Assembly (NCBI GenBank): GCA_963665845.2
Contig: OY762492.1
Location: forward strand, 1,632,001-1,696,000
Origin: Candidatus Poribacteria bacterium
Lineage (GTDB): Bacteria; Poribacteria; WGA-4E; GCA-2687025
Length of the DNA: 64,000 nt
Reading direction: 5' to 3'
Shown here: in pieces, positions 39,320 to 56,303 of the stretch
Numbering within the stretch: position 1 is the stretch's first letter
Layout: the number at the start of each line of letters is the position of its first letter
The notes under the pieces: model-generated
Seen by the model: the letters and a program-made list of their open reading frames with translations, nothing else
What the model was told of the DNA's origin: nothing
Database searches by the model: none
Position numbers and translations under genes: made by a program

Positions 39320-42300
39320 ATGCCTGATTTTTTCAAAGAGCCGATACTGAACTCGCCCTATGAGGAGCCGACGCGCCACTGGGAGCTGGACGAAAAAGGG
39401 CAGCCAACGACGGTTATCCAGAAAGGACGTCGAAGAGCGGACTTCATCACGCCGATACCGAAGGCGAGGCGAGAGCAGGCGAGGTTCGCCATTGATGAAG
39501 GGTACGGGCTGACAACCGACGATCAGCATTACCATGCGTCCATCATCAACCGGATACGGGAGAGAGTGGACGAGTGGCGGGCTTTGCCTGACGAGAAGAG
39601 CTGGCGCGTCTCTCCTCATACGGCGGCGCTATTGAAGCATTGGAGGGCGGGACGGTTTATCAGCTTCAGACCCTTCTTCTGTCAAATGGAGGCGGTTGAA
39701 ACGATCATCTGGCTGACGGAGGTTGCGCCAAAGTTTAACAATCGCGCCGTCAAGGAAATACTAGACAATATCAAAAAGGCGAACGAGGAGGCGAATCCGA
39801 ACCTCAACCGCCTCGCGCTCAAAATGGCGACCGGCGCCGGCAAAACGGCCGTCATGGCGATGCTGATCGCATGGCAGACGGTGAACGCTGTTCGGATGTC
39901 TCGAAGCCCCCGGTTCACGAAGGGGTTTTTGGCGGTCGCGCCCGGCATCACCATCAAAGACAGGCTGCGCGTTCTTCTCCCGAACGATCCCGACAACTAC
40001 TATATTCAGCGTCAGCTCGTCCCAGACAGCATGAGAGGCGACATCAAAAAGGCTAAAGTTGTCATCACAAACTACCATGCGTTCAAAAAGAAGGAACGGC
40101 TCGAAATACAAACAGGGGCGCGCAAGCTGCTGGACCGCGGGGCGCGCGTCAACAGGGATGAAACGGACGGGCAGATGCTGCGGCGCATCATGCCTGAACT
40201 CATGAACATGAAAAACATTTTCATCATGAACGACGAGGCGCACCACTGTTACCGAGAAAAGCCTGAAGCGGAAGCGGAACAGAAAGCGCTCAAAGGGGAT
40301 GAAAAGCAGGAAGCGAAGAACAACCGAGAAGCGGCGCGCCTCTGGATCAACGGCCTCGAAGCGGTCGGACGAACGCTCGGTCCGAACCCCGCGCGCGTCA
40401 TCGACCTGTCGGCAACGCCGTTTTTTCTGCGCGGTTCAGGATACGCCGAAGGGACGCTGTTTCCATGGACGATGAGCGACTTCTCGCTCATGGACGCCAT
40501 CGAATGCGGCATTGTGAAGCTGCCGCGCGTTCCCGTTGACGACAACCTGTCTGACGAGATGCCGACGCTGCGAAACCTCTGGGAGCATATCGCCAAGGAT
40601 ATGCCGAAAAAAGGGCGCAGCAGTTCCCAAACTCTTGACCCTCAACGTCTTCCGAACGAACTGCAAACAGCGTTGGAAGCGGTGTACGGGCATTACAGCA
40701 GGACCTTTGATCAGCATAAAGACGCAGAATTCGAGGTTCTGCCATGCTTCATCGTCGTCTGCAGTAACACCGCCTCCTCCAAGCTGGTGTACGACTACAT
40801 CGCGGGGTACTGGCGGGAAGATCAGAACGGCAAGCCTCATTTTACACAGGGCAAGTTCGAACTGCTGCGCAACTACAACGACGAAGGCAGCCCATTTCCG
40901 ACGCCGAATACGCTGCTCATCGACAGCCGCCAGCTGGAGTCGGGCGACGCGCTGACGTCTGAATTCCGCAAAGCAGCCGACGAAGAAATTGAGCGGTTCC
41001 GGCGTGAAATCACGCGCAGAACAGGGCAGCCCGTCTCCAAAAAGAACATCACCGACGCGCAGATACTGCGCGAAGTGATGAACACCGTCGGCAAAAAGGG
41101 GCAGCTCGGCGCCGATATTCGATGCGTCGTCTCCGTCTCCATGCTGACGGAGGGATGGGACGCGAACAACGTCACGCATATTCTGGGCGTCCGCGCCTTC
41201 GGAACGCAGCTGCTCTGCGAGCAGGTGGTCGGGCGCGCCTTGCGAAGGCAGTCGTATGATCTGAACGACAAGGGGCTATTCAACGTTGAATACGCAGACA
41301 TACTGGGCGTGCCGTTCGACTTCACCGCAAAGCCTGTCCCCGCGCCGCTGACTCCCCCGATCAAAACGACGATGATTCAGGCGCAAAGCCCCGAACGAGA
41401 CGCGCTTGAGATACGCTTTCCGCAGGTCATGGGCTACCGCGTCGACAAGCCGAACGACCGGCTAGCGTTTGAGTTCACCGACGAATCGAAGCTGACGCTG
41501 ACGCCTGACATGGTCGGGCCGACCGTCACGCTCAACGAAGGCATTGTCGGCGAGGGAACCGAACTGACCTTGAATCATCTGAAAACGCGCCGCGCGCAGG
41601 AGGTGGAATATAGCTTGACGCACTACATCTTGATGAAGCGATGGCGCGAACAGGGCGAGGACCCTAGAATGCATCTATTCGGGCAGCTGAAGCGGATTGT
41701 GCAAGCATGGATAAACGAATGCTTTGAATGCAAAGGCGGCACGATGCCGGCGCAGTTGATGTGGCGCAGCGTCGCCGACATGGCATACGAGCGCATTGAG
41801 GCGGCCGTCACGCGCGCCAGCGGCGGAGAGAATCAAATCAAGGCGATACTGAACCCTTACAACGCATTCGGCTCCACCGCGGATGTTCAATTCAAGACCG
41901 CCAAAACGGACCTTTACCGGACCGATCCGCGAAAGTGCCATCTGAATTACGCAGTTCTGGATTCGGGTTGGGAGGCGGAGTTTTGCCGCGCCGCCGAGGC
42001 GCATCCGCGCGTCAAAGCGTATGTGAAAAACGCGGGTCTCGGATTTGAAATTCCTTACAGGTCGGGCGGACAGCGGCGCGTCTATCTGCCCGATTATATC
42101 GTCCAGATCGACGACGGGCGGGGAGAAGAGGATCCGCTGAACCTTGTCGTTGAAATCAAAGGGCTGAAACGCGAATCGGACAGAGAGAAGATCGACGCGG
42201 CGAAAACCTACTGGGTTCCGGGCGTCAACAACCGAGGCGGATGCGGACGCTGGGACTTCATTGAGCTGGACGACCTGTTCGAGATAGAAGCGGAGCTGAA

Positions 42301-42328
42301 GCGGTTGATTCAAGAAAAAAGCAGTTGA
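39320..42328 (+). CDS. Type III restriction enzyme Res subunit
   Basis: KMATGAGKT, DEAHH, LSATP, MLTEGWD, EQVVGRALRR; C-terminal PDYIV..VEIKG. Confidence 0.92.
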   Translation: MPDFFKEPILNSPYEEPTRHWELDEKGQPTTVIQKGRRRADFITPIPKARREQARFAIDEGYGLTTDDQHYHASIINRIRERVDEWRALPDEKSWRVSPHTAALLKHWRAGRFISFRPFFCQMEAVETIIWLTEVAPKFNNRAVKEILDNIKKANEEANPNLNRLALKMATGAGKTAVMAMLIAWQTVNAVRMSRSPRFTKGFLAVAPGITIKDRLRVLLPNDPDNYYIQRQLVPDSMRGDIKKAKVVITNYHAFKKKERLEIQTGARKLLDRGARVNRDETDGQMLRRIMPELMNMKNIFIMNDEAHHCYREKPEAEAEQKALKGDEKQEAKNNREAARLWINGLEAVGRTLGPNPARVIDLSATPFFLRGSGYAEGTLFPWTMSDFSLMDAIECGIVKLPRVPVDDNLSDEMPTLRNLWEHIAKDMPKKGRSSSQTLDPQRLPNELQTALEAVYGHYSRTFDQHKDAEFEVLPCFIVVCSNTASSKLVYDYIAGYWREDQNGKPHFTQGKFELLRNYNDEGSPFPTPNTLLIDSRQLESGDALTSEFRKAADEEIERFRREITRRTGQPVSKKNITDAQILREVMNTVGKKGQLGADIRCVVSVSMLTEGWDANNVTHILGVRAFGTQLLCEQVVGRALRRQSYDLNDKGLFNVEYADILGVPFDFTAKPVPAPLTPPIKTTMIQAQSPERDALEIRFPQVMGYRVDKPNDRLAFEFTDESKLTLTPDMVGPTVTLNEGIVGEGTELTLNHLKTRRAQEVEYSLTHYILMKRWREQGEDPRMHLFGQLKRIVQAWINECFECKGGTMPAQLMWRSVADMAYERIEAAVTRASGGENQIKAILNPYNAFGSTADVQFKTAKTDLYRTDPRKCHLNYAVLDSGWEAEFCRAAEAHPRVKAYVKNAGLGFEIPYRSGGQRRVYLPDYIVQIDDGRGEEDPLNLVVEIKGLKRESDREKIDAAKTYWVPGVNNRGGCGRWDFIELDDLFEIEAELKRLIQEKSS

Positions 42329-42389
42329 CAACGCCCAGCGCCGCGTCTCATAATCTAACAGCGCAATAGGGCGGCGATTGGAGGCGGAC

Positions 42390-42926
42390 ATGAGCGAACG
42401 AAGCGGAACGAAACGAAAACAGCATCGAGACCCCTGGCACGAACTGCGCGCCGCGCTGATCCAGGCGCAGGCGCAGCTGGACGCCGAGCATGAATGGCGG
42501 GAAGGATGGGCGGATCTACTCAACGGCGCGTTGGAGGCGGTTGACAGGTTCGAGGCGCGGCAAAAAGACATACGCCGCCTCAACCCCATCGCGGAGCGGC
42601 TGGCGGTGGAGGAATGCCGCGATGTCCGGCTAGAGCTCGCATACGCCTTGAACGAGGCGCTGGATCGATTGAGAGCCTTGACCAAATTTCGGAGCGAAAT
42701 GCGCCGTCATGCGCTCGCTTTAGAATCGTCGGGCAAAGAAAAAAACGGGTTTGCGGCGGCGCTTCTCCGCGTCAGCCGCTCGCTGGAAGCGGCGACGATT
42801 GAAGATGCCTACAAGGTTGTTGATGATATTCAGAGGGAGAATTCGCTCCAAGCCGCCCGCTATCTGGGGACCCAAATCAAAACGGGCGGGCGGACTTTCA
42901 CACGGGATGAAATGAATGAGCGTTGA
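42390..42926 (+). CDS. Putative antitoxin with long helical N-terminus, copy 1
   Basis: Ends GRTFTRDEMNER, a VapB-type tail, and overlaps the PIN gene. TTGACA..CATAAT promoter upstream. Confidence 0.7.
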   Translation: MSERSGTKRKQHRDPWHELRAALIQAQAQLDAEHEWREGWADLLNGALEAVDRFEARQKDIRRLNPIAERLAVEECRDVRLELAYALNEALDRLRALTKFRSEMRRHALALESSGKEKNGFAAALLRVSRSLEAATIEDAYKVVDDIQRENSLQAARYLGTQIKTGGRTFTRDEMNER

Positions 42927-43359
42927 CCATTTTTTGGACTCGAACATCGTCATCTACTACTATGACGATCAAAGTCCCAGAAAGAAAGCAAAAGCGAGGC
43001 GCATGGTGAACAGCGCGCTCGATAATGAAAACGGCTGCGTCAGCTTCCAGGTCGTTCAAGAAACAATGTACGTCATCAGGAAAAAGCTACGGGTGGACGA
43101 TAAGGACGCCGAATTCATGCTGAACAACATACTGCTGCAGCTTTGGGAAGCGAATCCCGTGTGGGAAACCGACCCGACGCCGGAAATGTACCAACGCGCC
43201 TTCGATCTCCATAAACGGCGCGGAATCGCCAACTTCTACGACTGCGTCATCGCCGTAAACGCTCTGGACGCCGGATGCGCCACGATCTACACAGAAGACG
43301 CAGGTCTGCTACACGCCCAGCGGGTTGAGGATGTGGACATCGTCAACCCGTTCAATTAA
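42916..43359 (+). CDS. PIN-domain (VapC-like) toxin
   Basis: FLDSNIVIY, SFQVVQE, FYDCVI, YTED. Confidence 0.88.
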   Translation: MSVDHFLDSNIVIYYYDDQSPRKKAKARRMVNSALDNENGCVSFQVVQETMYVIRKKLRVDDKDAEFMLNNILLQLWEANPVWETDPTPEMYQRAFDLHKRRGIANFYDCVIAVNALDAGCATIYTEDAGLLHAQRVEDVDIVNPFN

Positions 43360-43394: not shown

Positions 43395-43931
43395 ATGGCT
43401 GAACGAAGCGGAACGGAACGAAAACAGCATCGAGACCCCTGGAACGAACTGCGCGCCGCGCTGATCCAGGCGCAGGCGCAGCTGGACGCCGAGCATGAAT
43501 GGCGGGAAGGATGGGCGGAGCTACTCAACGGCGCGTTGGAGGCGGTCGACAGGCTCGAGGCGCGGCAAAAAGACATACGCCGCCTCAACCCCATCGCGGA
43601 GCGGCTGGCGGTGGAGGAATGCCGCGATGTCCGGCTAGAGCTTGGATACGCCCTGAACGAGGCGCTGGATCGATTGAGAGCCTTGACCAAATTTCGGAGC
43701 GAAATGCGCCGTCATGCCATAGCTCTAGAATCGTCGGGCGGAGAAAAAAACGGGTTTGCGGCGGCGCTGCTGCGCGTCAGTCGGTCGCTGGAAGCGGCGA
43801 AGATGGAAGACGCCTACAAGGTTGTTAGCGAAATTCGGAAGGAGAATTCGCTCCAGAGCCTTCGGTATCTGGAGACCCGAATCAAAACGGGCGGACGCAC
43901 TTTCACACGGGATGAAATGAATGAGCGTTGA
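43395..43931 (+). CDS. Putative antitoxin, copy 2 (orphan)
   Basis: Near-identical to 42390..42926. Confidence 0.7.
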   Translation: MAERSGTERKQHRDPWNELRAALIQAQAQLDAEHEWREGWAELLNGALEAVDRLEARQKDIRRLNPIAERLAVEECRDVRLELGYALNEALDRLRALTKFRSEMRRHAIALESSGGEKNGFAAALLRVSRSLEAAKMEDAYKVVSEIRKENSLQSLRYLETRIKTGGRTFTRDEMNER

Positions 43932-44126
43932 CCATTTTTTGGACTCCAACCCTTTCAATTCCGCCGTCATTCCCGCTTCTCCTCGTCATTCCCGCTTCTC
44001 CTCGTCATTCCCGCGTAAGCGGGAATCTTAAAGCAACGCAGCCGCCGCGCGCGGCGGAAACCCCCCTGCCCCCCTTTTCAAGGGGGGAGTCTGAAGGATG
44101 TTGACATCGTCAACCCGTTCAACTAA
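43921..44126 (+). pseudogene. PIN toxin remnant: both ends kept, middle replaced by a REP block
   Basis: First 30 bp (MSVDHFLDSN) and last ~32 bp (DVDIVNPFN*) flank 144 bp of REP-B/REP-A sequence. Confidence 0.85.
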
Positions 44127-44164
44127 GATAGACCCTGAACTCAAAACGAAGACGGAGAACGAGC

Positions 44165-47100
44165 ATGGCAAAAAAAGCCCGAACGCCCAAAACGGTCGAA
44201 CACACCAAGCACGAGGACGCCAAACGCAAAAACAACCCCACCGCCGAATTCCAAAACCTGGTCTCTGACGAGATCAAGCGGCCCGTGCCTGTCCATATCA
44301 AACGCCCCAACCCCGACCTGGACCCGCAGCTGGTCTGGCACGGAAAAGACGCAAGCAGTCTAGACGAAATGGTCGTCAACGCGCCATCGCTTTACATCCA
44401 AGAAAAAATACAGCCCAAAGCGATCATCGACGGCCTGATGCGCCTCGCCGAGACGAACGCCCCCGACGAAGACCAAGGCGCCCTCTTCGCCGACTTCAAC
44501 GGCGTCCCCGAAAACGCCCAAACCGAGTTCTATCAGCACGACGCAAAATGGTCAAACCGAATGATACTCGGCGACAGCCTGCATGTCATGGCGTCGCTCG
44601 CCGAACGGGAAAACCTGCGCGGACAGGTCCAGTGCGTCTATATCGACCCGCCCTACGGCATCAAGTTCAACTCCAACTTCCAATGGTCAACGCAAACGCG
44701 CGACGTCAAAGACGGCAACGCGGCGCATATCACCCGCGAACCCGAACAGGTGAAAGCGTTCCGCGACACATGGGAAAACGGCGTCCACTCTTACCTCGGA
44801 TACCTGCGCGACAGAATCACCGCCGCCAGAGAGCTTCTGAACGAAACAGGCTCATGCTTCGTTCAGATCGGAGACGAAAACGTTCACCGCGTCCGCGCCA
44901 TCATGGATGAGGTGTTCGGACCTGAAAATTATATTTCATTGATTACATTTACAAAAACATCACCACTTGGCACCAAGCTTATAGCGAATCGCTGCGATTA
45001 CATTGTTTGGTATGCGCGCGATAAAGAAATCGTAAAATATCGTCCTCTTTTTGTTTCAAAAAATGTAGGACGGGGTACCGCATATTCCCACATTGAATTT
45101 CCTGATGGAAGTAAGCGTAGACTATCTTCCAATGACTCGAATCTGCCTAAAAATATAGATTATTTTGTATTAGGAAATTTATTGTCTACAGGATTTACTA
45201 AAACATGCTACTATGACTTTGACTTCGAAGGGCGGACTGTGCCTCAAGGTAGGTATAGCTGGAAAACCACTAAGAACGGCATGGAGCGGCTAATTCGCAT
45301 GGGCAGAGTATATGGTCAAGGATTAAGGCCTGGATACGTACAAAAATTTTCAGACTTTCCTGTCCAAACACTAGATCATTTATGGAACGACACAGGAGGA
45401 GCTCAAAATCGAAGATATGTTGTTGAAACAACCTCCAAGGTAATTCAGCGCTGCATCCTCATGACGACGGACCCAGGCGACCTTGTCCTGGACCCGACCT
45501 GCGGCTCTGGGACGACGGCGTACGTCGCTGAGCAGTGGGGCAGGCGCTGGATCGTTATCGACACGTCGCGCGTCGCGCTGGCTCTGGCGCGTATGCGTCT
45601 CATGGGGGCGCGTTATCCGTATTATCTGCTGTCCGACACGCCTGAAGGTCAACAGAAGGAGGCGGATCTGGAGCGGCGCGCCGTCTCGGAGGCGCCGACC
45701 TACGGCATGATACGGCAGGGGTTCGTCTATGAGCGCGTCCCGCACATCACGCTGAAGGCGATTGCGAACAACCGCGAGATCGACGAGATATGGGAGCGTC
45801 ATGAGGAGCGTTTGCGTCCGCTTCGAGAGGAGCTGTCGTCCGCCGCCGGTTTGGCGGAGCCGCTGGAGGAGTGGGAGGTTCCGCGCGAACTCCCTGACGG
45901 TTGGCATTCGGCGTCGGAGCCGCTGCTGTCCCGCTTTTGGAGGGATCGCGCCGCGCGTCAGAAGGAGATCGACGCGTCCATCGCCGCGGCGGCGGAATAC
46001 GAGCAGCTGTTCGACAAGCCGTTTGAGGACAAGAGGAAGGTTCGGGTCGCGGGTCCGTTCACGGTGGACAGCTTGTCGCCGGTGCGCTCCGTGCCGGTCG
46101 ATTCGAACGGCGATCCGCGTTTGAAGGAGCAGGAAGCGGCGGAAACGAAAGACTTTGCCGAGACGATTTTGGAGGCGCTGCGGGCGTCCGGCGTTCAGCA
46201 GACCGACAAGGCGGACCGCATCAAGTTTGAGTCGCTGGAGCCGTTCGGCGGCAAGTTTATCGCGGCGGAGGGCGTTTATACGGAGGGCGATGAGAAGAAG
46301 ACGGCGGGGGTGTATATCGGGCCGGAGTATAACGCAGTGTCGGACATCGAATTGACGATGGCGGCAAAGGAGGCGGCCGCCGCCATGCATGACGTCCTGA
46401 TTGCATGCGGTTTCAGCTTCGATCCTCAAGCCGCCAAGCGCCTGAATAGAGGGAGGATGCGGATACTTCATGCGCGCATGAACGCCGATCTGCATATGGG
46501 CGCGGATTTGAAGAATACGGGCATCGGAAACCTGTTCATCATCTTCGGCGAGCCGGACATTACAGTGGGCAGTGAAAAGTGGATCGTGGACAGCGAAGGG
46601 AAATGGATCGCGCCTTATGACATCTTTGCGCTCGTATCGGGACTTGATCGTATGGAAGAAGTCAATGGACTTCGCCGTGAAGATTTACACGCTTACGCGC
46701 GGCTTTCCCGCCGACGAGAGATTTGGGATGATCTCGCAGATGCGGCGGGCGTCGTCGTCGATACCGGCGAACATCGCGGAGGGTCAGGCGCGTCGCACAA
46801 CGGGGGAATTTCTACATTCGCTTGGCATTGCGCGGGGGTCTTTAGCGGAGGTCGAGACCTTTCTGATATTGTCGGCGCGATTGGAGATGATCGGCTCCGA
46901 GAGTTTAAAGCGCTTGTTGACCGACTGCGAGGAGATCAGCAAAATGCTTCACGGGCTGATGAAGTCTCTGGCATCCCGCCGATAGACTCTGTCCACTATC
47001 CACTGACGACTGCCCACTTCCACCAGGTAAGGATAAACGGCGTGGACATCTTTGATCCAAGAAAAGGCGAGCCGAAGAGCCATGACATAGACGGCATCGC

Positions 47101-47347
47101 CTGCTGGTTCATCGACACCGATTACAACGGCGAAAGCTTTTTTGTGCGCCATGCCTATTTCATCGGCGCGGACGACCCGTATAAGCAGTTGAAGACGACC
47201 TTGAAAGCGGAGATCAACCAAGAGGCATGGGAGTCCCTGCGCGGCAACCTCTCGCGCCCGTTTCCGCGCCCGTCTTCGGGGATGATCGCCGTCAAGGTCA
47301 TCAACCGCTTCGGCGATGAGGCGATGCGCGAATTCCAGATTGAATAG
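44165..47347 (+). CDS. Type III R-M Mod subunit (amino-methyltransferase, beta class) with in-frame ~150-aa insertion
   Basis: YIDPPYG, LVLDPTCGSGTT; AT-rich TRD at about 44925-45440; C-terminal AVKVINRFGDE. Confidence 0.92.
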   Translation: MAKKARTPKTVEHTKHEDAKRKNNPTAEFQNLVSDEIKRPVPVHIKRPNPDLDPQLVWHGKDASSLDEMVVNAPSLYIQEKIQPKAIIDGLMRLAETNAPDEDQGALFADFNGVPENAQTEFYQHDAKWSNRMILGDSLHVMASLAERENLRGQVQCVYIDPPYGIKFNSNFQWSTQTRDVKDGNAAHITREPEQVKAFRDTWENGVHSYLGYLRDRITAARELLNETGSCFVQIGDENVHRVRAIMDEVFGPENYISLITFTKTSPLGTKLIANRCDYIVWYARDKEIVKYRPLFVSKNVGRGTAYSHIEFPDGSKRRLSSNDSNLPKNIDYFVLGNLLSTGFTKTCYYDFDFEGRTVPQGRYSWKTTKNGMERLIRMGRVYGQGLRPGYVQKFSDFPVQTLDHLWNDTGGAQNRRYVVETTSKVIQRCILMTTDPGDLVLDPTCGSGTTAYVAEQWGRRWIVIDTSRVALALARMRLMGARYPYYLLSDTPEGQQKEADLERRAVSEAPTYGMIRQGFVYERVPHITLKAIANNREIDEIWERHEERLRPLREELSSAAGLAEPLEEWEVPRELPDGWHSASEPLLSRFWRDRAARQKEIDASIAAAAEYEQLFDKPFEDKRKVRVAGPFTVDSLSPVRSVPVDSNGDPRLKEQEAAETKDFAETILEALRASGVQQTDKADRIKFESLEPFGGKFIAAEGVYTEGDEKKTAGVYIGPEYNAVSDIELTMAAKEAAAAMHDVLIACGFSFDPQAAKRLNRGRMRILHARMNADLHMGADLKNTGIGNLFIIFGEPDITVGSEKWIVDSEGKWIAPYDIFALVSGLDRMEEVNGLRREDLHAYARLSRRREIWDDLADAAGVVVDTGEHRGGSGASHNGGISTFAWHCAGVFSGGRDLSDIVGAIGDDRLREFKALVDRLRGDQQNASRADEVSGIPPIDSVHYPLTTAHFHQVRINGVDIFDPRKGEPKSHDIDGIACWFIDTDYNGESFFVRHAYFIGADDPYKQLKTTLKAEINQEAWESLRGNLSRPFPRPSSGMIAVKVINRFGDEAMREFQIE
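46564..47018 (+). mobile_element. Inverted-repeat-bounded IVS-like element inside mod
   Basis: 30-bp IRs built of 7-mers: AGTGGGCAGTGAAAAGTGGATCGTGGACAG (46564-46593) and CTGTCCACTATCCACTGACGACTGCCCACT (46989-47018), 25/30 complementary. Confidence 0.8.
46617..46985 (+). CDS. Four-helix-bundle protein (23S rRNA-IVP/Avd-like family), nested in mod in the +1 frame
   Basis: SYRDLIVWKKSM, FPADERFGMISQMRRASSSIPANIAEG, FLHSLGIARGSLAEVET; full length with ATG and TAG. Confidence 0.9.
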   Translation: MTSLRSYRDLIVWKKSMDFAVKIYTLTRGFPADERFGMISQMRRASSSIPANIAEGQARRTTGEFLHSLGIARGSLAEVETFLILSARLEMIGSESLKRLLTDCEEISKMLHGLMKSLASRR

Positions 47348-47457
47348 CCTCCTCCCGCAGGCGCTGTCCGCGTCCATCGGTTTGACAACCCCGCCATCGT
47401 GTATCATTCTTTAACAGCGCGTCATAAGGGCGTCGTCGGCAGCGATGGGAGGCGGAC

Positions 47458-48003
47458 ATGACCGAACGAAGCGGAACGGAACGAAAACAGCATCGAGACC
47501 CTTGGAACGAACTGCGCGCCGCTCTCATCCAGGCGCAGGCGCAGCTGGCGCAGTTGGACGTCGAGCCTGAACGGCGGGAGAACTGGACTCCTCTTCTCGA
47601 CGGCGCATTGGAGGCGGTCAACAGGTTCAAGGCGCGTCAAAAAGAGATACCCGGTCTCCGCCGCGCCGCGGAGCGTCTGGCGGTGGAGGAATGCCGCGAC
47701 GCTCGGAGGGCGTTCGGACGCGCCCTGAGCGAGTCGCTGGATCAGTTGAGAACCCTGACCAAGTTTCGAGGCGAGATGCGCCGTCATGCCCTCGCTCTAG
47801 AATCGTCGGGCGGAGAAAAAAACGGGTTTGCGGCGGCGCTTCTCCGCGTCAGTCGGTCGCTGGAAGCGGCGGCGCTTGAGGATGACTACGATACTCTTCT
47901 GAAAGTTCGGGGGGAGAATTCGGTTCAAATCGGCCGCTATCTGCAGACCCGAATCAAAACGGGCGGACGTACCTTCACACGGGATGAAATGAATGAGCGT
48001 TGA
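47458..48003 (+). CDS. Putative antitoxin with long helical N-terminus, copy 3
   Basis: Diverged paralog ending FTRDEMNER. Confidence 0.7.
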   Translation: MTERSGTERKQHRDPWNELRAALIQAQAQLAQLDVEPERRENWTPLLDGALEAVNRFKARQKEIPGLRRAAERLAVEECRDARRAFGRALSESLDQLRTLTKFRGEMRRHALALESSGGEKNGFAAALLRVSRSLEAAALEDDYDTLLKVRGENSVQIGRYLQTRIKTGGRTFTRDEMNER

Positions 48004-48436
48004 TCATTTTTTGGACTCCAACATCGTCATTTACTACTATGACGATCGAAGTCCGGAAAAGAAAGCAAAAGCGACGCTTCTGGTTGACAGCGCGCTTAAA
48101 AATCAAAACGGCTGCATCAGCTACCAGGTCGTTCAAGAGACAATGTATGTCGTCAGGAAAAAGCTGCGGGTGGACGATAATGACGCCGAAACCATGCTGA
48201 ATGACAGACTATTGCCGCTTTGGGAAGCGAATCCCGCGCGGGAGATCGACCCGACGCCGGAAATGTACCTACGCGCTTTTGATCTCCAGAAACGGCGCGG
48301 AATCGCCAATTTCTATGATTGCGTCATCGCCGTGAACGCTCTCGACGCTGGATGCTCAACGCTCTATACAGAAGACGCGGGTCTGCTCCATGCCCAGCGG
48401 GTTGAGGATGTGGACATCGTCAACCCGTTCATCTAA
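47993..48436 (+). CDS. PIN-domain (VapC-like) toxin, copy 2
   Basis: Paralog of 42916..43359. Confidence 0.88.
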   Translation: MSVDHFLDSNIVIYYYDDRSPEKKAKATLLVDSALKNQNGCISYQVVQETMYVVRKKLRVDDNDAETMLNDRLLPLWEANPAREIDPTPEMYLRAFDLQKRRGIANFYDCVIAVNALDAGCSTLYTEDAGLLHAQRVEDVDIVNPFI

Positions 48437-48517: not shown

Positions 48518-49033
48518 ATGGCGGCTGTTGCATCCAAGAACGCGGAATTTTATCTCAAACGCGGTCGGCTCTATGCCGACAAGGGCAAACTAGAGCGCGC
48601 CGCTGCGGAATACGCCAAGGCGGTAGAGCTGCAGCCCGACGACCCGACAGCGTATCGTTTCCGCGCAGAAGCGTACCGCGCAGCGGGCGATCTTTGCCGC
48701 GCCCTTGCCGACATCAACAAGGCGGTTGATCTGGACCTTTACGACGCGCAGGCGTTCATGCTCCGCGGGCTGATCTATAAAGACAGGGGCGAGATGGCCG
48801 ATTACGAAGAGGAGTTTCGCGTCGCCGTCCTGCTTGACGGCGAGCTGGTGAACCATGAAACGCATGGGGCGGAATTTGCGCGTATCCTGAAAGCTGACGA
48901 GGAAGAGGAGGCGGAGTGGGACGAACTCGCCAGCCGGCCGGAAGCGAAGGCGCTGTTTGAGGAATGGGAAGCGGAAGCGATGGAGGAGTATCGAGCGGGG
49001 AAAACGAAGCCTTTGGATCCTGAGGATCTATAA
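48518..49033 (+). CDS. TPR protein fused to an acidic antitoxin-like tail (type B)
   Basis: About 3 TPRs, then EEEEAEWDELA..EAMEEYRAGKTKPLDPEDL; TAATG overlap with the toxin. Confidence 0.75.
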   Translation: MAAVASKNAEFYLKRGRLYADKGKLERAAAEYAKAVELQPDDPTAYRFRAEAYRAAGDLCRALADINKAVDLDLYDAQAFMLRGLIYKDRGEMADYEEEFRVAVLLDGELVNHETHGAEFARILKADEEEEAEWDELASRPEAKALFEEWEAEAMEEYRAGKTKPLDPEDL

Positions 49034-49314
49034 TGCGCTCGCGCACATCTTCGCGGTTTCGAAGGCAATTCAGGCGTCTTCCAAAAGAAGTCCGGCAAAA
49101 GGCAAAAGCGGCATACCGCCTATTTGAAACGAACCCCCGCCATCCCGCCTTACAATTTAAAAAATTACGCGGCAGCGACCGCAGATATTCGGTTCGTTTC
49201 TATAAAAAATACCGCGCTCTCGCAAGAAGAACAGATGAGGGCGACCTCGAATGGTATTCTATTGGATCGCATGCGACATACGACCAGGATATAAATAATA
49301 AGAAGTTGGGATAA
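49033..49314 (+). CDS. RelE/ParE-superfamily toxin
   Basis: FRRQFRRLP, NPRHPALQFKKL, SVR...YRAL, WYSIGSHATYD. Confidence 0.85.
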   Translation: MRSRTSSRFRRQFRRLPKEVRQKAKAAYRLFETNPRHPALQFKKLRGSDRRYSVRFYKKYRALARRTDEGDLEWYSIGSHATYDQDINNKKLG

Positions 49315-49377
49315 ATCCGCATGGTTCTCGCGCCCAAAACCGCTATAATGCGCTCAAACCCATCATGAAAGGCGCCC

Positions 49378-52300
49378 ATGCGCAAACCCGTCATCGACAA
49401 CCAGGACAAGAGCGATACGCTTCTCGACCGCCTCAAGCCCCGTCTCAAGGGCGCGGACGCCTTGCGCGTCGTCTCCGCCTATTTCTCCATCTACGGCTTC
49501 GGCGCGCTCGCCGACCAGCTCCGCCCCCTCAAAGAGACCCGCTTCCTCTACGGCGACCCAGGCTCCATCGACGACATCGACCCCGGCGAAAAAACCGACC
49601 GCGCCTTCTACCTGCACGATGAACGGCTCGCGCCGACCGAAGCGCTGCGCCAAAAAGCGCTCGCCGAACAGTGCGAGAAATGGGTGCGGCAGCGCCGTAC
49701 CAAAATACGCGCCATCGCCCGCTCCAATTTCCTCCACGGCAAAATGTGGCATATCGACAAAAAAGACGCGCCGTTCGCCGTCGTCGGAAGCTCCAACTTC
49801 ACCCAGCGCGGACTCGGCGCCGGCGCGGCGCCGAACATTGAGATCAACCTCGCCGCGGACGACCCGCAAACATGCAAAGAACTGCGCGACTGGTTCGACG
49901 ACCTATGGAACGACGAGACGAAGGTCATAGATGTCAAACTGGAGGTTCTGAAAGCGCTGCGCCGCATCGGGCGCGAATGGGGCGCCGAAAGCGTCTATTT
50001 CAAAACGCTCTATGCGCTGTTCAAAGACGACTGGCAGGCGATCCAAGACAGCGACGCGGAACTCAAAAGCCTCAAACTGACCGACGCGCAGATATGGAAC
50101 GCGCTGTACCAGTTTCAAAAAGACGGCGTCCACAGCATTCTCAAAAGCCTAAATAGCCACAACGGATGCCTGCTCGCCGACAGCGTCGGCCTCGGAAAAA
50201 CGTACGCCGCCCTCGCCGTCATCAAGTATCACGAACTGCGCAATGAGCGCGTCCTCGTGCTCTGTCCGCGCAAACTGCGGGAGCAGTGGGCGTTGTATCT
50301 CAGCGCGGCGGGGCAAGAAGGCAACCCGTTTCTAAAAGACAGGTTCAACTACTCGCTGCTCTCCCATACCGACCTCTCCCGCGACAAAGGAATCGTCGGA
50401 AACATCGATCTCGCCAACTTCAACTGGAGCTCCTTCGATCTGGTCGTCATCGACGAATCGCACAACTTCCGCAACCCGGACGGGAAGCGTTACCAAAAAC
50501 TGATCAAAGAGATCATCAAGGAAAGCGTCAACACAAAAGTGCTGATGCTCTCCGCGACCCCCGTCAACACCTCCCTCATCGACCTGCGCAACCAGATCTA
50601 TCTCATGACCGAAGGGCGCGACGACGCCTTCGCGCCAAGCCTCAACATACACAGCCTCAAACGGACCCTCCGAAACGCCCAAGAGCAGTTCAACGCATGG
50701 AGTCCTGAAGACGGCAAACAGGGGCTTCTGGAGACGCTCGGCGCCGACTTCCAAAGCATTCTCGCCGCCGTCACCGTCTCCCGATCTAGAAAGCAGATCG
50801 AGACCTTTTACAGAGCCGACATGGAACGAGTCGGCGCCTTCCCAACACGCGACGACCCTGTCAACCTCTACCCCCCCACCGACACAGAAAAACAGCTCTC
50901 CTATGAGAAGCTGGCGGAGCAGATTGAGCAGTTCCAGCTCTCCATCTACACCCCCACCAACTATCTCATCAGCCTAGCGAGGCGGGCGGAACTGGACGCG
51001 GAAAAGAAACGGCGCAACTTCAACCAGCAAGACCGAGAACGGTTCCTGATCGGAATGATACGGGTCAACTTCCTCAAACGGCTCGAAAGCGCCCCCCACT
51101 CGCTCAAGTTGACGCTGCAGCGGACGGTCAAAAAAATCAGCGATCTCATCGACAAGATCGACCGTTACAGCGGGCGGCCGTCCAGCGACGCGGAGCTGAA
51201 CGAAGAGACGGCGCCTTACGAAACCGATGTGGAGGAAGACGACGATCTCATCGTCAACAAAGGCAAAAATCCGTTCAAGCTAAGCGAACTGGATGTCCAA
51301 ACATGGCGCGAAGACCTTGTCAAAGACAGGGACATCCTGAACGAAGCGCTGCGTCAGGTGGCGGCGGTCGCGCCCGAACGAGACGGCAAACTGGATGAGA
51401 TCAAGCGGCTGATACGCCGGCGCGCCGAGTACCCGTCCCTCGACCAAAACGGCAAGGAATGCCGCAAGCTGATTGTCTACACCACCTTCAAAGACACGGC
51501 GCTGTATCTCTATCGCCAGCTGGAGCCGCTGACGAAGGAGCTGGGGTTGAAGATGGCGATGGTCGCGGGATCGGAAACGCATACGGAGCATGGCGACAAC
51601 AATTTCCACGCCATACTCAACAACTTCGCCCCCTTCGGACGCAAGGGCGAAGGCGCCGCCGCCGACCCCGACATCGACCTGCTCATCGCCACCGACTGCG
51701 TCTCGGAAGGCATGAACCTCCAAGACTGCGACCGCATCGTCAACTACGACATCCACTGGAACCCGGTGCGCATCATTCAGCGGTTCGGGCGCATCGACCG
51801 CATCGGCAGCAAAAGCCGCTCCATAAAGATGACGAACTTTTGGCCGACCGAGGACATGGAGGTATACCTGAAACTGGAAAGCCGCGTCCGGTCGCGCATG
51901 GCGCTGGCGGACATCGCCGCCACAGGCGAAGACGACCCGCTCGACATCCAAGAGGAGCTGCAACTCGCCGAAAAAGAGCTGACCCTCCGATACAAGCAGC
52001 TGCGCAAAATGAAAGAGGAAGGCGCCTACATAGAGGAGCTGGACGACGCGCCCGCCATGAGCGACTTCTCCTTCGCGCGCTTCGTCGGGCAACTGAACGA
52101 ATACCTGCGCCAACGGCAATACGAGCTGGAGAACATGCCGGACGGCGCCTACGCGGTCGTCAAGCGGGACGAGGGCGCGGAGCCGGGCATCCTCTTCTTC
52201 CTGCGCCAAACAAACGCCGACCCTGAAAACCCAGACAAATCCGCAAGCCCCGTCGCCCCGCATTACGCCGTCTATGTCCAAGACGACGGAACGATACGCC

Positions 52301-52635
52301 ACGGATGCGCCAACGCCCAGCAGATACTCGACATCTTTGAAGCCGCCGCCGTCGGCAAAACGGAACCGATACAGGACATGTGCGACCTGTTCAACATGGA
52401 AACGGAAAACGGACAGAAAATGGCGCGGTACGACGATCTGATCCAAGCCGCGGCAGACGACATCAAAACGGCGTACGCCGCCGCCATTGAAAAAAATATA
52501 GCGGGCGGCGACCGCAACTTCATGCTGCCCGTCTACGAGAACGCGCCGCGAGACCTGAACGACTTTACACTGGTCACATGGCTTGTTATACTGGACGCCG
52601 ATCATGAACGTTATGAAACGGGGTACGGCGTATGA
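49378..52635 (+). CDS. PLD-nuclease plus SNF2-type helicase
   Basis: LHGKMW..GSSNFT (PLD); LADSVGLGKT, DESHNFRN, LSATP, SEGMNLQD, QRFGRIDRIG. Confidence 0.9.
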   Translation: MRKPVIDNQDKSDTLLDRLKPRLKGADALRVVSAYFSIYGFGALADQLRPLKETRFLYGDPGSIDDIDPGEKTDRAFYLHDERLAPTEALRQKALAEQCEKWVRQRRTKIRAIARSNFLHGKMWHIDKKDAPFAVVGSSNFTQRGLGAGAAPNIEINLAADDPQTCKELRDWFDDLWNDETKVIDVKLEVLKALRRIGREWGAESVYFKTLYALFKDDWQAIQDSDAELKSLKLTDAQIWNALYQFQKDGVHSILKSLNSHNGCLLADSVGLGKTYAALAVIKYHELRNERVLVLCPRKLREQWALYLSAAGQEGNPFLKDRFNYSLLSHTDLSRDKGIVGNIDLANFNWSSFDLVVIDESHNFRNPDGKRYQKLIKEIIKESVNTKVLMLSATPVNTSLIDLRNQIYLMTEGRDDAFAPSLNIHSLKRTLRNAQEQFNAWSPEDGKQGLLETLGADFQSILAAVTVSRSRKQIETFYRADMERVGAFPTRDDPVNLYPPTDTEKQLSYEKLAEQIEQFQLSIYTPTNYLISLARRAELDAEKKRRNFNQQDRERFLIGMIRVNFLKRLESAPHSLKLTLQRTVKKISDLIDKIDRYSGRPSSDAELNEETAPYETDVEEDDDLIVNKGKNPFKLSELDVQTWREDLVKDRDILNEALRQVAAVAPERDGKLDEIKRLIRRRAEYPSLDQNGKECRKLIVYTTFKDTALYLYRQLEPLTKELGLKMAMVAGSETHTEHGDNNFHAILNNFAPFGRKGEGAAADPDIDLLIATDCVSEGMNLQDCDRIVNYDIHWNPVRIIQRFGRIDRIGSKSRSIKMTNFWPTEDMEVYLKLESRVRSRMALADIAATGEDDPLDIQEELQLAEKELTLRYKQLRKMKEEGAYIEELDDAPAMSDFSFARFVGQLNEYLRQRQYELENMPDGAYAVVKRDEGAEPGILFFLRQTNADPENPDKSASPVAPHYAVYVQDDGTIRHGCANAQQILDIFEAAAVGKTEPIQDMCDLFNMETENGQKMARYDDLIQAAADDIKTAYAAAIEKNIAGGDRNFMLPVYENAPRDLNDFTLVTWLVILDADHERYETGYGV

Positions 52636-55600
52636 TGCGAGCCAGAATCGAGGCGGGACTGGAAAAGGCGGCGGAGGCGGACAACTTCCACGACGGAGCC
52701 AACCAGCTGCTCAAGACGCTCGGATATGAAAGCGGGCGGCGTGGGCTGACAACCTTCAAACCCAAAAAGTTTGTCGAAGAATTTCCAAATCCGCGCGGCG
52801 CCGGAACGCAAACCGAATTGAGATTTCTGAAGGAGGTACAATCGACCCGCATCCTGTTTCAAATGACCGACGACGAGGTGAACCAAGCCGCCCAGAGACG
52901 AACAGGCGAGATGACGCTATTTGAAAGCGGCGGGTCAGAGATGGACGAGTCGGTCGATAGAAGCTTCTTTTTTGCGTCGGTGGAGCTGAACGGCGAGTCG
53001 TATTCGCGCGGAAAATACGCCGAATTCACCCGCGAACTGAATAAACGGCTCCCCATCGCCACCGTCGCCCTCTTTAGAACGCAAAGCCGCCGCATCTCCA
53101 TCGCGCTAGCGGATCGCCGGGAACATAAAGCCGAGAAAGGAAGAGCCGTACTCGGGCGCGTCTCCCTCCTGCGCGAAATCGACCCCGGCAACATGCGCTC
53201 CGACGCCAACATACTGGAAGACCTGACCCTAAACAATCGAATCGAATGGATGCAAGACCTGGCGAAAAACGCCGAAAAGCGCAACTTCGACGGGCTGCGC
53301 AAAGCATGGCTCGACACGCTCGACACCGAATCGCTCAACAAGCGGTTCTATAAAGAACTGAAAGCATGGTTCGACCGCGTCGTTGAGGAGGCGACGTTCC
53401 CGACGACGAAAACGCAAACGCAGCAGGATCATGCTATCCGCCTCATCACCCGCATGCTGTTCATCTGGTTCATGAAAGAAAAGGGGCTGGTGAACAAGAA
53501 CCTGTTTAATCCAAAGCAGGTCGCGCCGCTGCTGCGGAATTGGAACATCGTCAGCGGGGATTCCTACTACCGAGCCGTCCTCCAAAATCTGTTCTTTGCG
53601 ACGCTCAACACGCCCATTGATCTGCGCGACTTCAGCAGGTTAGACAATTCGACGCGTCACATCCCGAATCCGTACAGGTATGCAGATCTGATGACCGACC
53701 CCGTCGAGCTAAGGGATCTCTTTAAGAAAACGCCCTTTATTAACGGCGGCCTCTTCGAGTGTCTTGACGATCTTGAAGGCGTCAATCCAGGCGGAAAACA
53801 GGTCGACTGCTTCACCGACGATACGGATCAACGCAAAGAGATGTCCGTTCCCGACGATACGGATCAACGCAAAGAGATGTCCGTACCCAACAGCCTCTTC
53901 TTCGACAAAAAGAACGGGCTGTTCAATCTGTTTAAAGGGTATAAGTTCACCGTCGAAGAGAACACGCCGATAGAGCAGGAGGTGGCGCTGGACCCCGAAC
54001 TGTTGGGAAACGTGTTTGAAAACCTGCTGGCGGAGATGAACCCTGAAACGCGCGACACCGCCCGTAAAATGACCGGCTCCTACTACACCCCGCGCGACGT
54101 CGTGAACTACATGACGAAAGAAGCGCTGGCGGCGGCGCTCGCCCAAAAGGTTCAGTCCGACCCCAAAAACGCCGATGACTGGGATGAAAACCTGAACGTA
54201 CTTCTAGACGACGAGAAGGCATGGGACGAAGCGGGAGATCTGTTTTCAGACGGGGAAAAGCGGCGGCTGACGGAAGGCATCGCCGACCTGAAAATACTGG
54301 ATCCTGCTGTCGGGTCCGGCGCCTTTCCGATGGCGGCGCTCCTGAAATTGACGATGGCGCTGCGACGCATAGATCCAAAGAACGAATTATGGGAGGATGT
54401 TCTGCTGAAACGCGCACGCGATCAAGCGGAGAAGGTCATCGGCCAGGAGCAAGATAACGAGCGGTACCATAAACAGATGGGGGAGATCAAGAAGACCTTT
54501 GACAGATTACGAGATTCAGATTACGGGCGGAAGCTGTTTCTCATTCAAAACAACATCTTCGGCGTCGACATTCAGCGCATCGCATGCCAGATCGCCAAGC
54601 TGCGCTTCTTCATCACCCTCGCCATCGAACAGGAATCGAACAAGGACGAGGATAATTATGGCATCAAACCGCTGCCAAACTTGGAGACCCGCTTTGTCGC
54701 CGCCGACGCGCTCCTGTCGCTCCATCCGAAATCCGATAAACCTCAGAAACTGAGATCCGAACTGACCGATCAACTTAAACAGGAAATACATGAGAACCGC
54801 CGGCGGTATTTTCTAGCCAACGAGCACGACGAAAAAAATATCCTCAAAGGCGAAAATGAGATTCTGCGGGGAAAGCTGTCGAAACAGCTGAAAACGATGA
54901 AATGGACGGACATAGCGGCGGAGCGAATCGCCAACTGGGATTCGTTCAGCCAAACAGACGACCCCGCCGACTGGTTCGACCCAGAGTATATGTTCGGCGT
55001 CCGATACGGGTTCGACGTCGTCATCGGCAACCCGCCCTATGTCCAGCTGCAGAAAAACGGCGGAGAGCTGGGGGAAAAATACCAAAACACAGGCAAAGAC
55101 CGAAAAACACGTTTTGAGACCTTCGCCCGCACAGGCGACATCTACTGCCTCTTTTATGAGCAGGCGCTGAACCTGGCGGCGGAGGGCGGATGCGCCTGCC
55201 TCATCACCTCCAATAAATGGATGCGCTCCGACTACGGCAAAAAGCTGCGCGACCTGTTCGTTGAAAAGATAAGCCCCGCCCTGCTGATCGATATGGGTCC
55301 GGGCGTTTTTGAGGCGTCGGTCGATACGAACATTCTGCTATTGAGGAAAGCCGCCCCCCTTCCCAACGCTGTCATAAACAGCGTTGAGATGAAGCCCGAC
55401 TTCAGCCGGCAGCAGGGCGGCGTCGGCGAGTATGTCCGGAAGAACGGCGTTGAGATGCCGGTTCCGGACGCTGGATATCCATGGACGATCGCCTCCGCCG
55501 TTGAGCTGAACATTCTGAAGAAGATGCGCGATGTCGGGACGCCGCTAAAGGAATGGGATGTAAACATCAATCGCGGCGTGACCATCGGATGCAATGACGC

Positions 55601-56303
55601 TTTCATCATTGACGCCGACACGCGCAGTCGTTTAGCGTTTGAAGATCCTAGATCAGACGAGATACTGAAGCAGATTCTGCGCGGACGCGACATACAAAGA
55701 TGGGTTCCAGAATGGGCAGGGCTGTGGTTGATAGATTCTCATAATGGCTTTGGCGATACGCCGCCCATCGATATGGACGACTACCCAGCTGTCAAAGCAT
55801 GGCTAGACCATTTCTACCCTAGACTTGAGAAACGTCAAGATAAAGGGAAGACTCCTTACAACCTCCGCAGCTGCGCTTACCATGAGGCTTTTTCCGAAGA
55901 GAAGCTGATGTGGAAAGATATTGCCACAAGCGGATATTTTACCTACGTCAACGTACCCATGTTTTGCAACAATACCAGTTATATTATGACCGGAACTTCG
56001 CTTAAATACCTATGCGCCGTCTTGAATTCTCGATTGGTAACGTGGTTTATGAGAAAAGCCGCTGCTGGGCTGGGACAGAAAGCGATTCGCTGGATCGCAA
56101 CGTATGTTAATCGCCTGCCCATCCCGCGTCCGCCGACGCCGGAAGTGGAGTCCGCGCTGGTTCTTTTAGTGGACGCAATCTTGTCGAAGAAGGCGTCCGA
56201 TCCAGGGGCGGATGTGTCGCGGTTGGAGGAGAAGATTGACGGCATGGTGTATGATCTTTACGGCTTGACGGAGGAGGAGCGCGCTGCCGTTTCCGGCGGC
56301 TAG
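52632..56303 (+). CDS. Eco57I/type IIG-like N6-adenine methyltransferase with TaqI_C-like TRD
   Basis: GSYYTP, LDPAVGSGAF, FGVDI, GNPPY, GRDI, YNLRSCAY, LNS; C-terminal LYGLTEEE. Confidence 0.9.
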   Translation: MMRARIEAGLEKAAEADNFHDGANQLLKTLGYESGRRGLTTFKPKKFVEEFPNPRGAGTQTELRFLKEVQSTRILFQMTDDEVNQAAQRRTGEMTLFESGGSEMDESVDRSFFFASVELNGESYSRGKYAEFTRELNKRLPIATVALFRTQSRRISIALADRREHKAEKGRAVLGRVSLLREIDPGNMRSDANILEDLTLNNRIEWMQDLAKNAEKRNFDGLRKAWLDTLDTESLNKRFYKELKAWFDRVVEEATFPTTKTQTQQDHAIRLITRMLFIWFMKEKGLVNKNLFNPKQVAPLLRNWNIVSGDSYYRAVLQNLFFATLNTPIDLRDFSRLDNSTRHIPNPYRYADLMTDPVELRDLFKKTPFINGGLFECLDDLEGVNPGGKQVDCFTDDTDQRKEMSVPDDTDQRKEMSVPNSLFFDKKNGLFNLFKGYKFTVEENTPIEQEVALDPELLGNVFENLLAEMNPETRDTARKMTGSYYTPRDVVNYMTKEALAAALAQKVQSDPKNADDWDENLNVLLDDEKAWDEAGDLFSDGEKRRLTEGIADLKILDPAVGSGAFPMAALLKLTMALRRIDPKNELWEDVLLKRARDQAEKVIGQEQDNERYHKQMGEIKKTFDRLRDSDYGRKLFLIQNNIFGVDIQRIACQIAKLRFFITLAIEQESNKDEDNYGIKPLPNLETRFVAADALLSLHPKSDKPQKLRSELTDQLKQEIHENRRRYFLANEHDEKNILKGENEILRGKLSKQLKTMKWTDIAAERIANWDSFSQTDDPADWFDPEYMFGVRYGFDVVIGNPPYVQLQKNGGELGEKYQNTGKDRKTRFETFARTGDIYCLFYEQALNLAAEGGCACLITSNKWMRSDYGKKLRDLFVEKISPALLIDMGPGVFEASVDTNILLLRKAAPLPNAVINSVEMKPDFSRQQGGVGEYVRKNGVEMPVPDAGYPWTIASAVELNILKKMRDVGTPLKEWDVNINRGVTIGCNDAFIIDADTRSRLAFEDPRSDEILKQILRGRDIQRWVPEWAGLWLIDSHNGFGDTPPIDMDDYPAVKAWLDHFYPRLEKRQDKGKTPYNLRSCAYHEAFSEEKLMWKDIATSGYFTYVNVPMFCNNTSYIMTGTSLKYLCAVLNSRLVTWFMRKAAAGLGQKAIRWIATYVNRLPIPRPPTPEVESALVLLVDAILSKKASDPGADVSRLEEKIDGMVYDLYGLTEEERAAVSGG
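53815..53886 (+). repeat. In-frame 36-bp tandem duplication (DDTDQRKEMSVP x2)
   Basis: Two copies with one mismatch. Confidence 0.9.

Follow-up and report, generated by a model that had tools for sequence, protein, structure and literature searches.

Within a 64,000-nucleotide (nt) stretch of Candidatus Poribacteria contig OY762492.1 (assembly GCA_963665845.2, positions 1,632,001 to 1,696,000), here called the window, a small gene lies inside the DNA methyltransferase gene (mod) of a restriction-modification (R-M) system of type III. It encodes a four-helix-bundle protein (FHB), is read one base out of step with Mod and stands between inverted arms built of heptamers. An initial annotation of the letters had taken this arrangement for a mobile cassette, akin to the intervening sequences (IVSs) of 23S rRNA, that colonised a protein-coding gene. 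The features at the locus are as follows.

44165..47347, + strand: 1060-aa host gene for the type III Mod DNA adenine methyltransferase, open across the cassette (PF01555, PADLOC)
39320..42328, + strand: 1002-aa partner, res, a type III restriction endonuclease/helicase of the BPTD_3080 family (NF046055, ResIII)
46544..46561, + strand: host side of the 5' junction (FGEPDI), where the first strand of a predicted C-terminal beta-sandwich begins (models, fold search)
46562..47023, + strand: cassette, 462 nt or 154 Mod-frame codons, replacing a 10-codon hairpin turn (comparison with empty alleles)
46564..46593, + strand: left arm, built of four to five heptamers with (A)GTG cores (pairing, alignment, model)
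46595..46604, + strand: purine-rich, putative ribosome-binding-site-like stretch 5' of the FHB start (duplex energy with the anti-Shine-Dalgarno (anti-SD) sequence)
46617..46985, + strand: FHB gene, TIGR02436/PF05635, 122 aa, +1 frame, net charge +6 (HMM, 2GSC)
46989..47018, + strand: right arm, 7-nt units with CAC(T) cores (pairing, alignment, model)
47024..47347, + strand: 3' host part, remaining strands of the predicted Ig/FN3-like Mod beta-sandwich (identity among carriers, structure search)

Anatomy of the nested cassette

The Mod open reading frame (ORF) matches PF01555 and reaches 1103 bits with the PADLOC model MTase_III, and its catalytic and S-adenosylmethionine (SAM) motifs, DPPY and DPTCGSG, are intact. 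The structure model of a homologue without the cassette matches EcoP15I Mod (4ZCF, E 8e-9). Res scores 1254 bits with NF046055 (cut-off 800), with a ResIII domain match as well, and a res homologue is present at 40 of the 47 cassette loci long enough to show one. By sequence, the window Mod would be a beta-class N6-adenine methyltransferase of a type III R-M system with linked res. A scan for promoters and terminators gave no signal exceeding shuffles.

The FHB ORF, as first annotated, runs from the ATG at 46617 to the TAG at 46985 and starts at Mod codon position 2. It matches PF05635 (135 bits, cut-off 33.8) and TIGR02436 (133 bits, cut-off 24) over its full length; the closest solved relative is 2GSC (E 3e-22, five chains). 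The left arm consists of the units AGTGGGC, AGTGAAA, AGTGGAT and CGTGGAC and reads VGSEKWIVDS in the Mod frame, a predicted beta-strand. The right arm and the following codons read SVHYPLTTAHFH, the last part of which is again predicted to form a beta-strand. The two 30-bp arms pair at 25 of 30 positions, which bears out the earlier description, and they close the predicted fold (z = −3.1; none of 100 shuffles was equally stable). Between FGEPDI and QVRING lie 462 nt, that is, 154 codons. GC content at Mod codon positions 1, 2 and 3 is 0.73, 0.48 and 0.47 in the insert and 0.65, 0.44 and 0.79 upstream; codon usage in the insert thus follows the FHB gene.

The window FHB is the sole member of its family in the genome, and blastn together with the family search found the cassette as a single copy. 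A 2458-nt contig identical to 44662-47119 occurs in two public runs, possibly the source data. Rfam (E up to 1) returned one chance-level CRISPR repeat match elsewhere and no intron or other family at the locus, and no rRNA match was found within 44000-48000. The Mod family scan showed no Hint family, and the junctions read DI-TVG and HFH-QV. In agreement with the initial annotation, reverse transcriptase (PF00078) had no match in the genome, which is 90% complete. We also considered an IHF-like reading of the invariant AAATCAAT stretch, which does not fit the consensus.

Selection on two overlapping frames

Relatives were collected with a DNA pattern picked on the left junction only, without regard to frame openness. 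It matched at least 113 stretches in one-per-species genomes, with titles spanning about 15 phyla; 80 of these had flanks and, with the window and five loci from relatives, gave 86 loci, some of them near-copies. A protein search with the insert region found 33 proteins, all with PF01555. The FHB start lies 73 nt past the F codon in nearly all loci. The cassettes form two subtypes, of 474 and 501 nt from F to G, split by a starred branch; in the FHB tree the window row joined the long-branch row L071, and this join was disregarded.

The initial annotation had relied on a Mod frame open for about 150 codons. All 154 codons are indeed open, but by synonymous shuffling of the window FHB gene this alone is near chance (P = 0.18), and the case hence rests on the relatives. 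Among these, the Mod frame is open in 67 of 68 intact copies, and in 61 of 62 after 90% dereplication, where synonymous shuffles predict 6.4 open genes. We found one stop at 1229 at-risk sites, in which a silent T would create a stop; the expected number was 182. In the third frame there are 7.7 stops per gene. The objection that the overlapping frame of this family might be intrinsically stop-poor stands in so far as GC-rich genes are stop-poor (10% expected open), yet this cannot yield 61 of 62. Free FHB copies from the carriers' own genomes were open inside the gene in 3 of 20 cases, closing within 20 codons outside; they replaced a first control set that was AT-rich (GC3 0.40; 0 of 19 open) and a poor match.

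The right junction is absent from three of the 86 loci; of the remaining 83, four are shifted and 79 stay in frame, one of these with a stop. Internal FHB deletions stay in frame in 12 of 12 alleles (10 distinct), a locus with a stop in FHB (L036) keeps Mod open, and 32 of 33 short loci are open over the 339 nt available (194 nt in one). Although the carrier relatives are not statistically independent, silent sites differ at 57-64% between them, so ancestral openness alone would not persist. Stops are purged from the Mod frame across the cassette, which favours the overprinted insertion that the initial annotation had offered as one of its options.

This also bears on the possibility that the cassette is removed or skipped at the RNA or ribosome level and Mod is made without the insert, by the excision or bypass that had been proposed earlier. 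Poor conservation of the Mod-frame residues in the loop would fit such a route, as would the long-range stem, which juxtaposes both junctions. However, skipping gives no reason to purge stops or to hold deletions in frame, the filled window allele does not retain the turn of the empty site, and neither an intron family nor an intein domain was found. An apparent spliced joint 46560-47024 in a public RNA run (X7), the sole RNA joint across the site, carries 31 other letters between these positions and is the empty allele of another organism; joints in DNA runs are likewise. We regard skipping as highly improbable.

The nested FHB is under purifying selection: over 1540 pairs, pN is 0.19-0.26 and pS 0.57-0.64. 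Together with the purging of stops from Mod, selection is thus seen in both frames, in support of the initial annotation. Fully nested genes on the same strand with both frames under selection are rare in bacteria. In the Mod frame, identity between carriers is 37-44% in the insert versus 82-92% in the 3' flank, and the overprinted residues are rich in G and S and poor in hydrophobics. These residues are not under purifying selection; their pN above pS is expected from the overlap itself and does not indicate positive selection. Upstream of FHB, a consensus GGGAGGA occupies −19 to −13 of the start and is weaker in the window. The anti-SD duplex energy averages −8.9 kcal/mol over 51 copies and is −6.3 in the window, compared with −4.5 (sd 2.7) in control windows. 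As a separate observation, FHB codon 16 (46662-46664) is an invariant Ser TCA in both nested subtypes and variable in free copies; TCA gives Asn in the Mod frame, and a Mod-frame or RNA-level constraint may act here.

The arms are conserved as nucleic acid, because they are fixed at positions that are silent in Mod. In the left arm, G is found in 51 and T in 50 of 51 copies (expected 16 and 5). In the right arm, which the DNA search pattern did not fix, A is found in 35 and 39 and C in 50 of 51 (expected 5.6, 3.7 and 32). The heptamer arms are visible by eye in all 20 free copies. In 49 of 51 copies the predicted fold is closed by the stem, whose register shifts between copies in multiples of 7. 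Pairing holds in 83% of cells, and there are 57 two-sided changes against 29 in shuffles.

Such arms could be an RNA-processing signal, in addition to read-through of Mod. When Mod translation lags, the stem would form and be cut by a double-strand RNase, so that the mod mRNA is destroyed and the FHB message freed. The stem conservation just described speaks for this, and there is a precedent in the helix-45 23S rRNA IVS of Coxiella burnetii, an element with an S23p ORF, heptamer repeats and a stem of 28 bp that RNase III excises (PMC4990558). RNase III is also present in 35 of 37 other carrier genomes. Furthermore, two RNA runs from a single study contain contigs of a related strain that are confined to the loop (46596-46937 and 46598-46980), and a DNA run crosses both arms. 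These RNA contigs, from a strain about 98% alike and at depths of 6-9, cannot show expression; they are a weak hint at processing by some nuclease or reflect a technical effect, as a strong stem can end contigs.

Against processing, the pairing register varies and pair-type measures do not exceed shuffles (139 of 500 and 72 of 500). Moreover, cleavage of the stem by RNase III, as envisaged in the initial annotation, finds no enzyme in this host: TIGR02191, PF14622, PF00636 and tblastn with the proteins of four relatives gave no match in the 90% complete genome. Three genomes of the same family read fabF-rnc-folK, and here fabF abuts folK (G000:C1:3651690-3653462), from which the RNase III gene appears to have been lost at this site. 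Nor was RNase III found in the congener or in the related families f2 (0 of 6), f6 (0 of 4) and f8 (0 of 17), and the families without detected RNase III include carriers (G026, G028) with both frames intact. RNA processing is hence rather improbable in our view.

The heptamers could also act as an on/off switch of Mod by slippage, where one or two units shift the frame and three keep it. Repeat-driven switching is known for type III mod genes. Two loci with intact FHB have left arms that truncate Mod, one with an extra unit (L086, +7) and one lacking two (L004, −14), and alleles of 495 and 516 nt correspond to 474 plus 21 and plus 42 nt. Still, these are only 2 of 83 loci, the units are imperfect and few, and no arm indel was listed in the read sets. 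Slippage as a switch thus seems very unlikely.

Empty alleles, cassette history and surroundings

If close Mod homologues all carried the segment, it would be ordinary domain sequence, a concern raised at the outset. A search with the Mod C-terminal region returned 118 new proteins, of which 114 have a short loop FGEPD-GVD, two have the cassette and two were unscorable. Thus 114 of the 116 scorable nearest Mods are empty alleles, and the empty site that the initial annotation had asked for is defined. In the usual empty form, FGEPDI and QV are 10 residues apart, where the window has 154. Position −3 is T in 71 of 79 filled loci versus K or R in 111 of 114 empty ones, and the right arm appears to extend into the host strand and rewrite it in most carriers; the window and three other filled loci keep the empty-type QV[KR][VI]N.

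The model of an empty homologue (mean pLDDT 58) has a strand at 826-834, a three-residue turn and a strand at 838-849 at this site. In a model of the last 440 residues of the window Mod, strands 177-188 and 328-344 run through the arms, with block pLDDT of 74-78; most of the loop is of low confidence and the mean is 59. A VIA-align structure search aligned model residues 175-440 to Ig/FN3-like sandwiches (Z 6-8) and residues 44-155 to restriction-endonuclease-like folds (Z up to 10.8). Both flanks would belong to one predicted fold, since the sandwich spans the site. The insertion site is predicted to be the beta-hairpin turn between the first and second strands of a single Ig-like domain, and would lie away from the methyltransferase motifs. 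A solved-structure search with the Mod C-terminal part gave no match, and the ESM Atlas returned unnamed clusters only, with PKD at 0.81 as no more than a lead. Empty alleles accommodate loops up to 55 residues longer at the site. One cassette-free Mod (P0148) carries such a 55-residue longer, acidic loop where the cassette would sit; the site hence tolerates insertions.

The history of the insert is decoupled from that of its host. Among 50 carriers, Mantel r is 0.55 between the two flanks and 0.18 between either flank and FHB, and 8 of the 20 closest flank pairs have different subtypes, near the 46% expected at random. Two loci (L062 and P0010) share 98% identity on either flank but 29% in the insert, and a filled allele (P0108) is 95-98% identical to empty alleles on both flanks. 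Filled and empty alleles are intermixed on the flank tree, with weak support. Such a pattern is what one expects of a unit that is acquired, exchanged, degraded and lost at a single site, and the coexistence of empty, intact and decayed alleles may be likened to a homing cycle. The free copy in locus L178 groups within nested subtype A. This locus (G190:C1:3796000-3812000) contains two free subtype-A FHB copies, 68% identical to that of the window, among many dispersed heptamer palindromes with AGTGGAG units, and there is a nested subtype-B copy in its genome as well.

A profile of the overprinted frame gave 560 matches in 1.84 billion representatives. Among the best 150, host sequence of at least 80 residues is present on one side in 109 and on both sides in 65; 68 of the best 150 were scanned against Pfam and 58 against PADLOC. 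These other hosts are known from protein records alone, and their identical phase follows from the construction of the profile search. The clusters comprise 36 PglX, DrmMI or type IIG proteins with the overprint near the SAM-binding motif, 29 proteins with it at the Mod site studied here, 15 with it at a site in the C-terminal part of PglX, 6 classical type III Mods, 5 DUF1156/HmaB proteins and 3 cases in a type I/IIG fusion. Small clusters are Ser/Thr kinases (after HRDLKPANILL) and histidine kinases.

Since 94 of the 109 host-bearing matches fall into DNA methyltransferase clusters, at six or more sites, one may suspect a domesticated accessory: Mod would be read through, FHB would serve defence, for instance as a co-translated methyltransferase regulator, and the patchwork would stem from ordinary mod recombination. 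Purifying selection on FHB agrees with this. On the other hand, nearly all of the nearest Mods do without the cassette, 13 loci with lost or broken FHB keep Mod open, the overprint is present in both kinds of kinases, and free copies bear similar arms. We consider domestication unlikely.

Several observations concern the surroundings of the cassette. Within the C-terminal extension of Mod, 46154-46490 (residues about 664-775) has a predicted restriction-endonuclease-like fold (Z 10.8 to 2VLD). Just 5' of mod, a palindromic repeat at 43965-44100 with a GTCATTCCCGC core followed by a GC-rich hairpin has 1110 blastn matches in the genome. A two-gene module of an unnamed 180-aa protein and a PIN-domain protein occurs around mod in two whole copies and one partial copy (42378-43359, 43395-43931 and 47458-48436), with more copies near C1:3.61 Mb and 3.50 Mb. 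A second defence locus adjoins at 48518-56303, with a TPR-repeat gene, a ParE-like toxin gene, the gene of a PLD-SNF2 helicase (49378-52635) and, at 52632-56303, that of a 1223-aa protein bearing methyltransferase motifs. Genome-wide (G000:C1), there are dozens more N6/N4 methyltransferase-like matches.

Proposed explanation and relation to known elements

Our explanation is that an IVS-type cassette, FHB between heptamer inverted arms, took the place of a short loop in a type III Mod and left the Mod frame open. Mod would be translated whole through the cassette, with the arms predicted to form a two-stranded beta-stalk, and FHB would be produced from an internal start of its own, offset by one base. 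As a selfish unit, the cassette would pass from filled mod alleles to empty ones. Taken as a whole, we hold this explanation to be somewhat more probable than its negation. Its parts differ: read-through with an active Mod protein is very probable, and expression of FHB is probable to nearly the same degree. No reverse transcriptase was found in the genome, and recombination between the conserved flanks would be sufficient for movement; that FHB helps such recombination by acting on its own arms we would put slightly below an even chance.

Some results weigh against this explanation. The cassette carries no nuclease, transposase or reverse transcriptase, and hence no mobilising enzyme, and plain recombination between mod alleles could yield the patchwork without a role of FHB. 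The flank tree is a quick tree, too weak for counting gains: it has 30 changes between filled and empty, of which the starred branches force only 3. Of 11 FHB-deleted alleles, just 2 have clearly decayed arms (p = 0.03 by core bases and 0.21 by duplex energy), which is weak evidence that FHB acts on the arms. In addition, the search pattern partly fixed left-arm columns 23, 28-32 and 37-39, four of 83 two-junction loci are frameshifted and one has a stop, the open frame of the window is weak when taken alone, and both structure models are weak overall.

The nearest known element is the Coxiella 23S IVS, which the cassette resembles in its size of about 430-460 nt, a PF05635 ORF in the loop, an inverted-repeat stem of about 28-30 bp, variable-number heptamers before the start, the replacement of a short host hairpin loop and sporadic horizontal spread. 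In contrast, the host here is an mRNA (mod) and the replaced loop a protein turn, and the host is kept by an open second frame rather than by excision, in a genome where RNase III is missing. The Coxiella ORF is described there as decaying and not made in vivo (PMC4990558), whereas the cassette FHB is under purifying selection. Rickettsia palindromic elements, BRE and BOX are in-frame repeat insertions in genes (PMC3184786). They share with the cassette a structured element within a coding sequence (CDS) that is read as host protein; however, they are described as short, multicopy and without a gene, and the cassette, unlike these or a MITE, is single-copy and has its own conserved gene in another frame.

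In its distribution the cassette is rather intein-like. Inteins occupy a fixed site in a conserved gene, occur as empty, full and decayed alleles and have a history decoupled from that of the host gene, all of which is found here. However, Hint domain, splicing residues and endonuclease are absent, the cargo lies in the other frame and the insert stays in the host protein. Compared with mod genes that vary in phase by simple sequence repeats, the units are imperfect and whole-heptamer shifts are rare. Avd, the accessory protein of diversity-generating retroelements, is a homologous four-helix bundle whose barrel binds RNA together with reverse transcriptase (PMC10053308; 10.1101/2023.10.23.563531). 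The window FHB reaches 24 bits against an Avd cut-off of 80, in a genome that has no such partner enzyme. The cassette is thus IVS-like in build and intein-like in distribution, and fails the defining tests of both. We found no description of a nested four-helix-bundle cassette in a search of mostly non-subscription literature.

The cassette may, more tentatively, represent a class of splice-free homing elements that land in surface hairpin loops, rebuild host strands from their arms, share nucleotides in a second frame and spread by an Avd-like ring protein acting on the arms without RNase III. The rRNA IVS would then be one landing site among others. About 15 phyla have the nested FHB at the fixed Mod site, and it returns at further sites in BREX, DISARM, type IIG and kinase genes; annotation shows an odd 150-residue insertion there and hides the small gene. 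Next to introns and inteins, the cassette would give mobile genes a third route to residing inside a CDS. A host without RNase III separates it from the sole activity known for intervening sequences, and one cloneable locus with natural empty, full and decayed alleles makes the role of TIGR02436 proteins, and that of their heptamer arms, testable.

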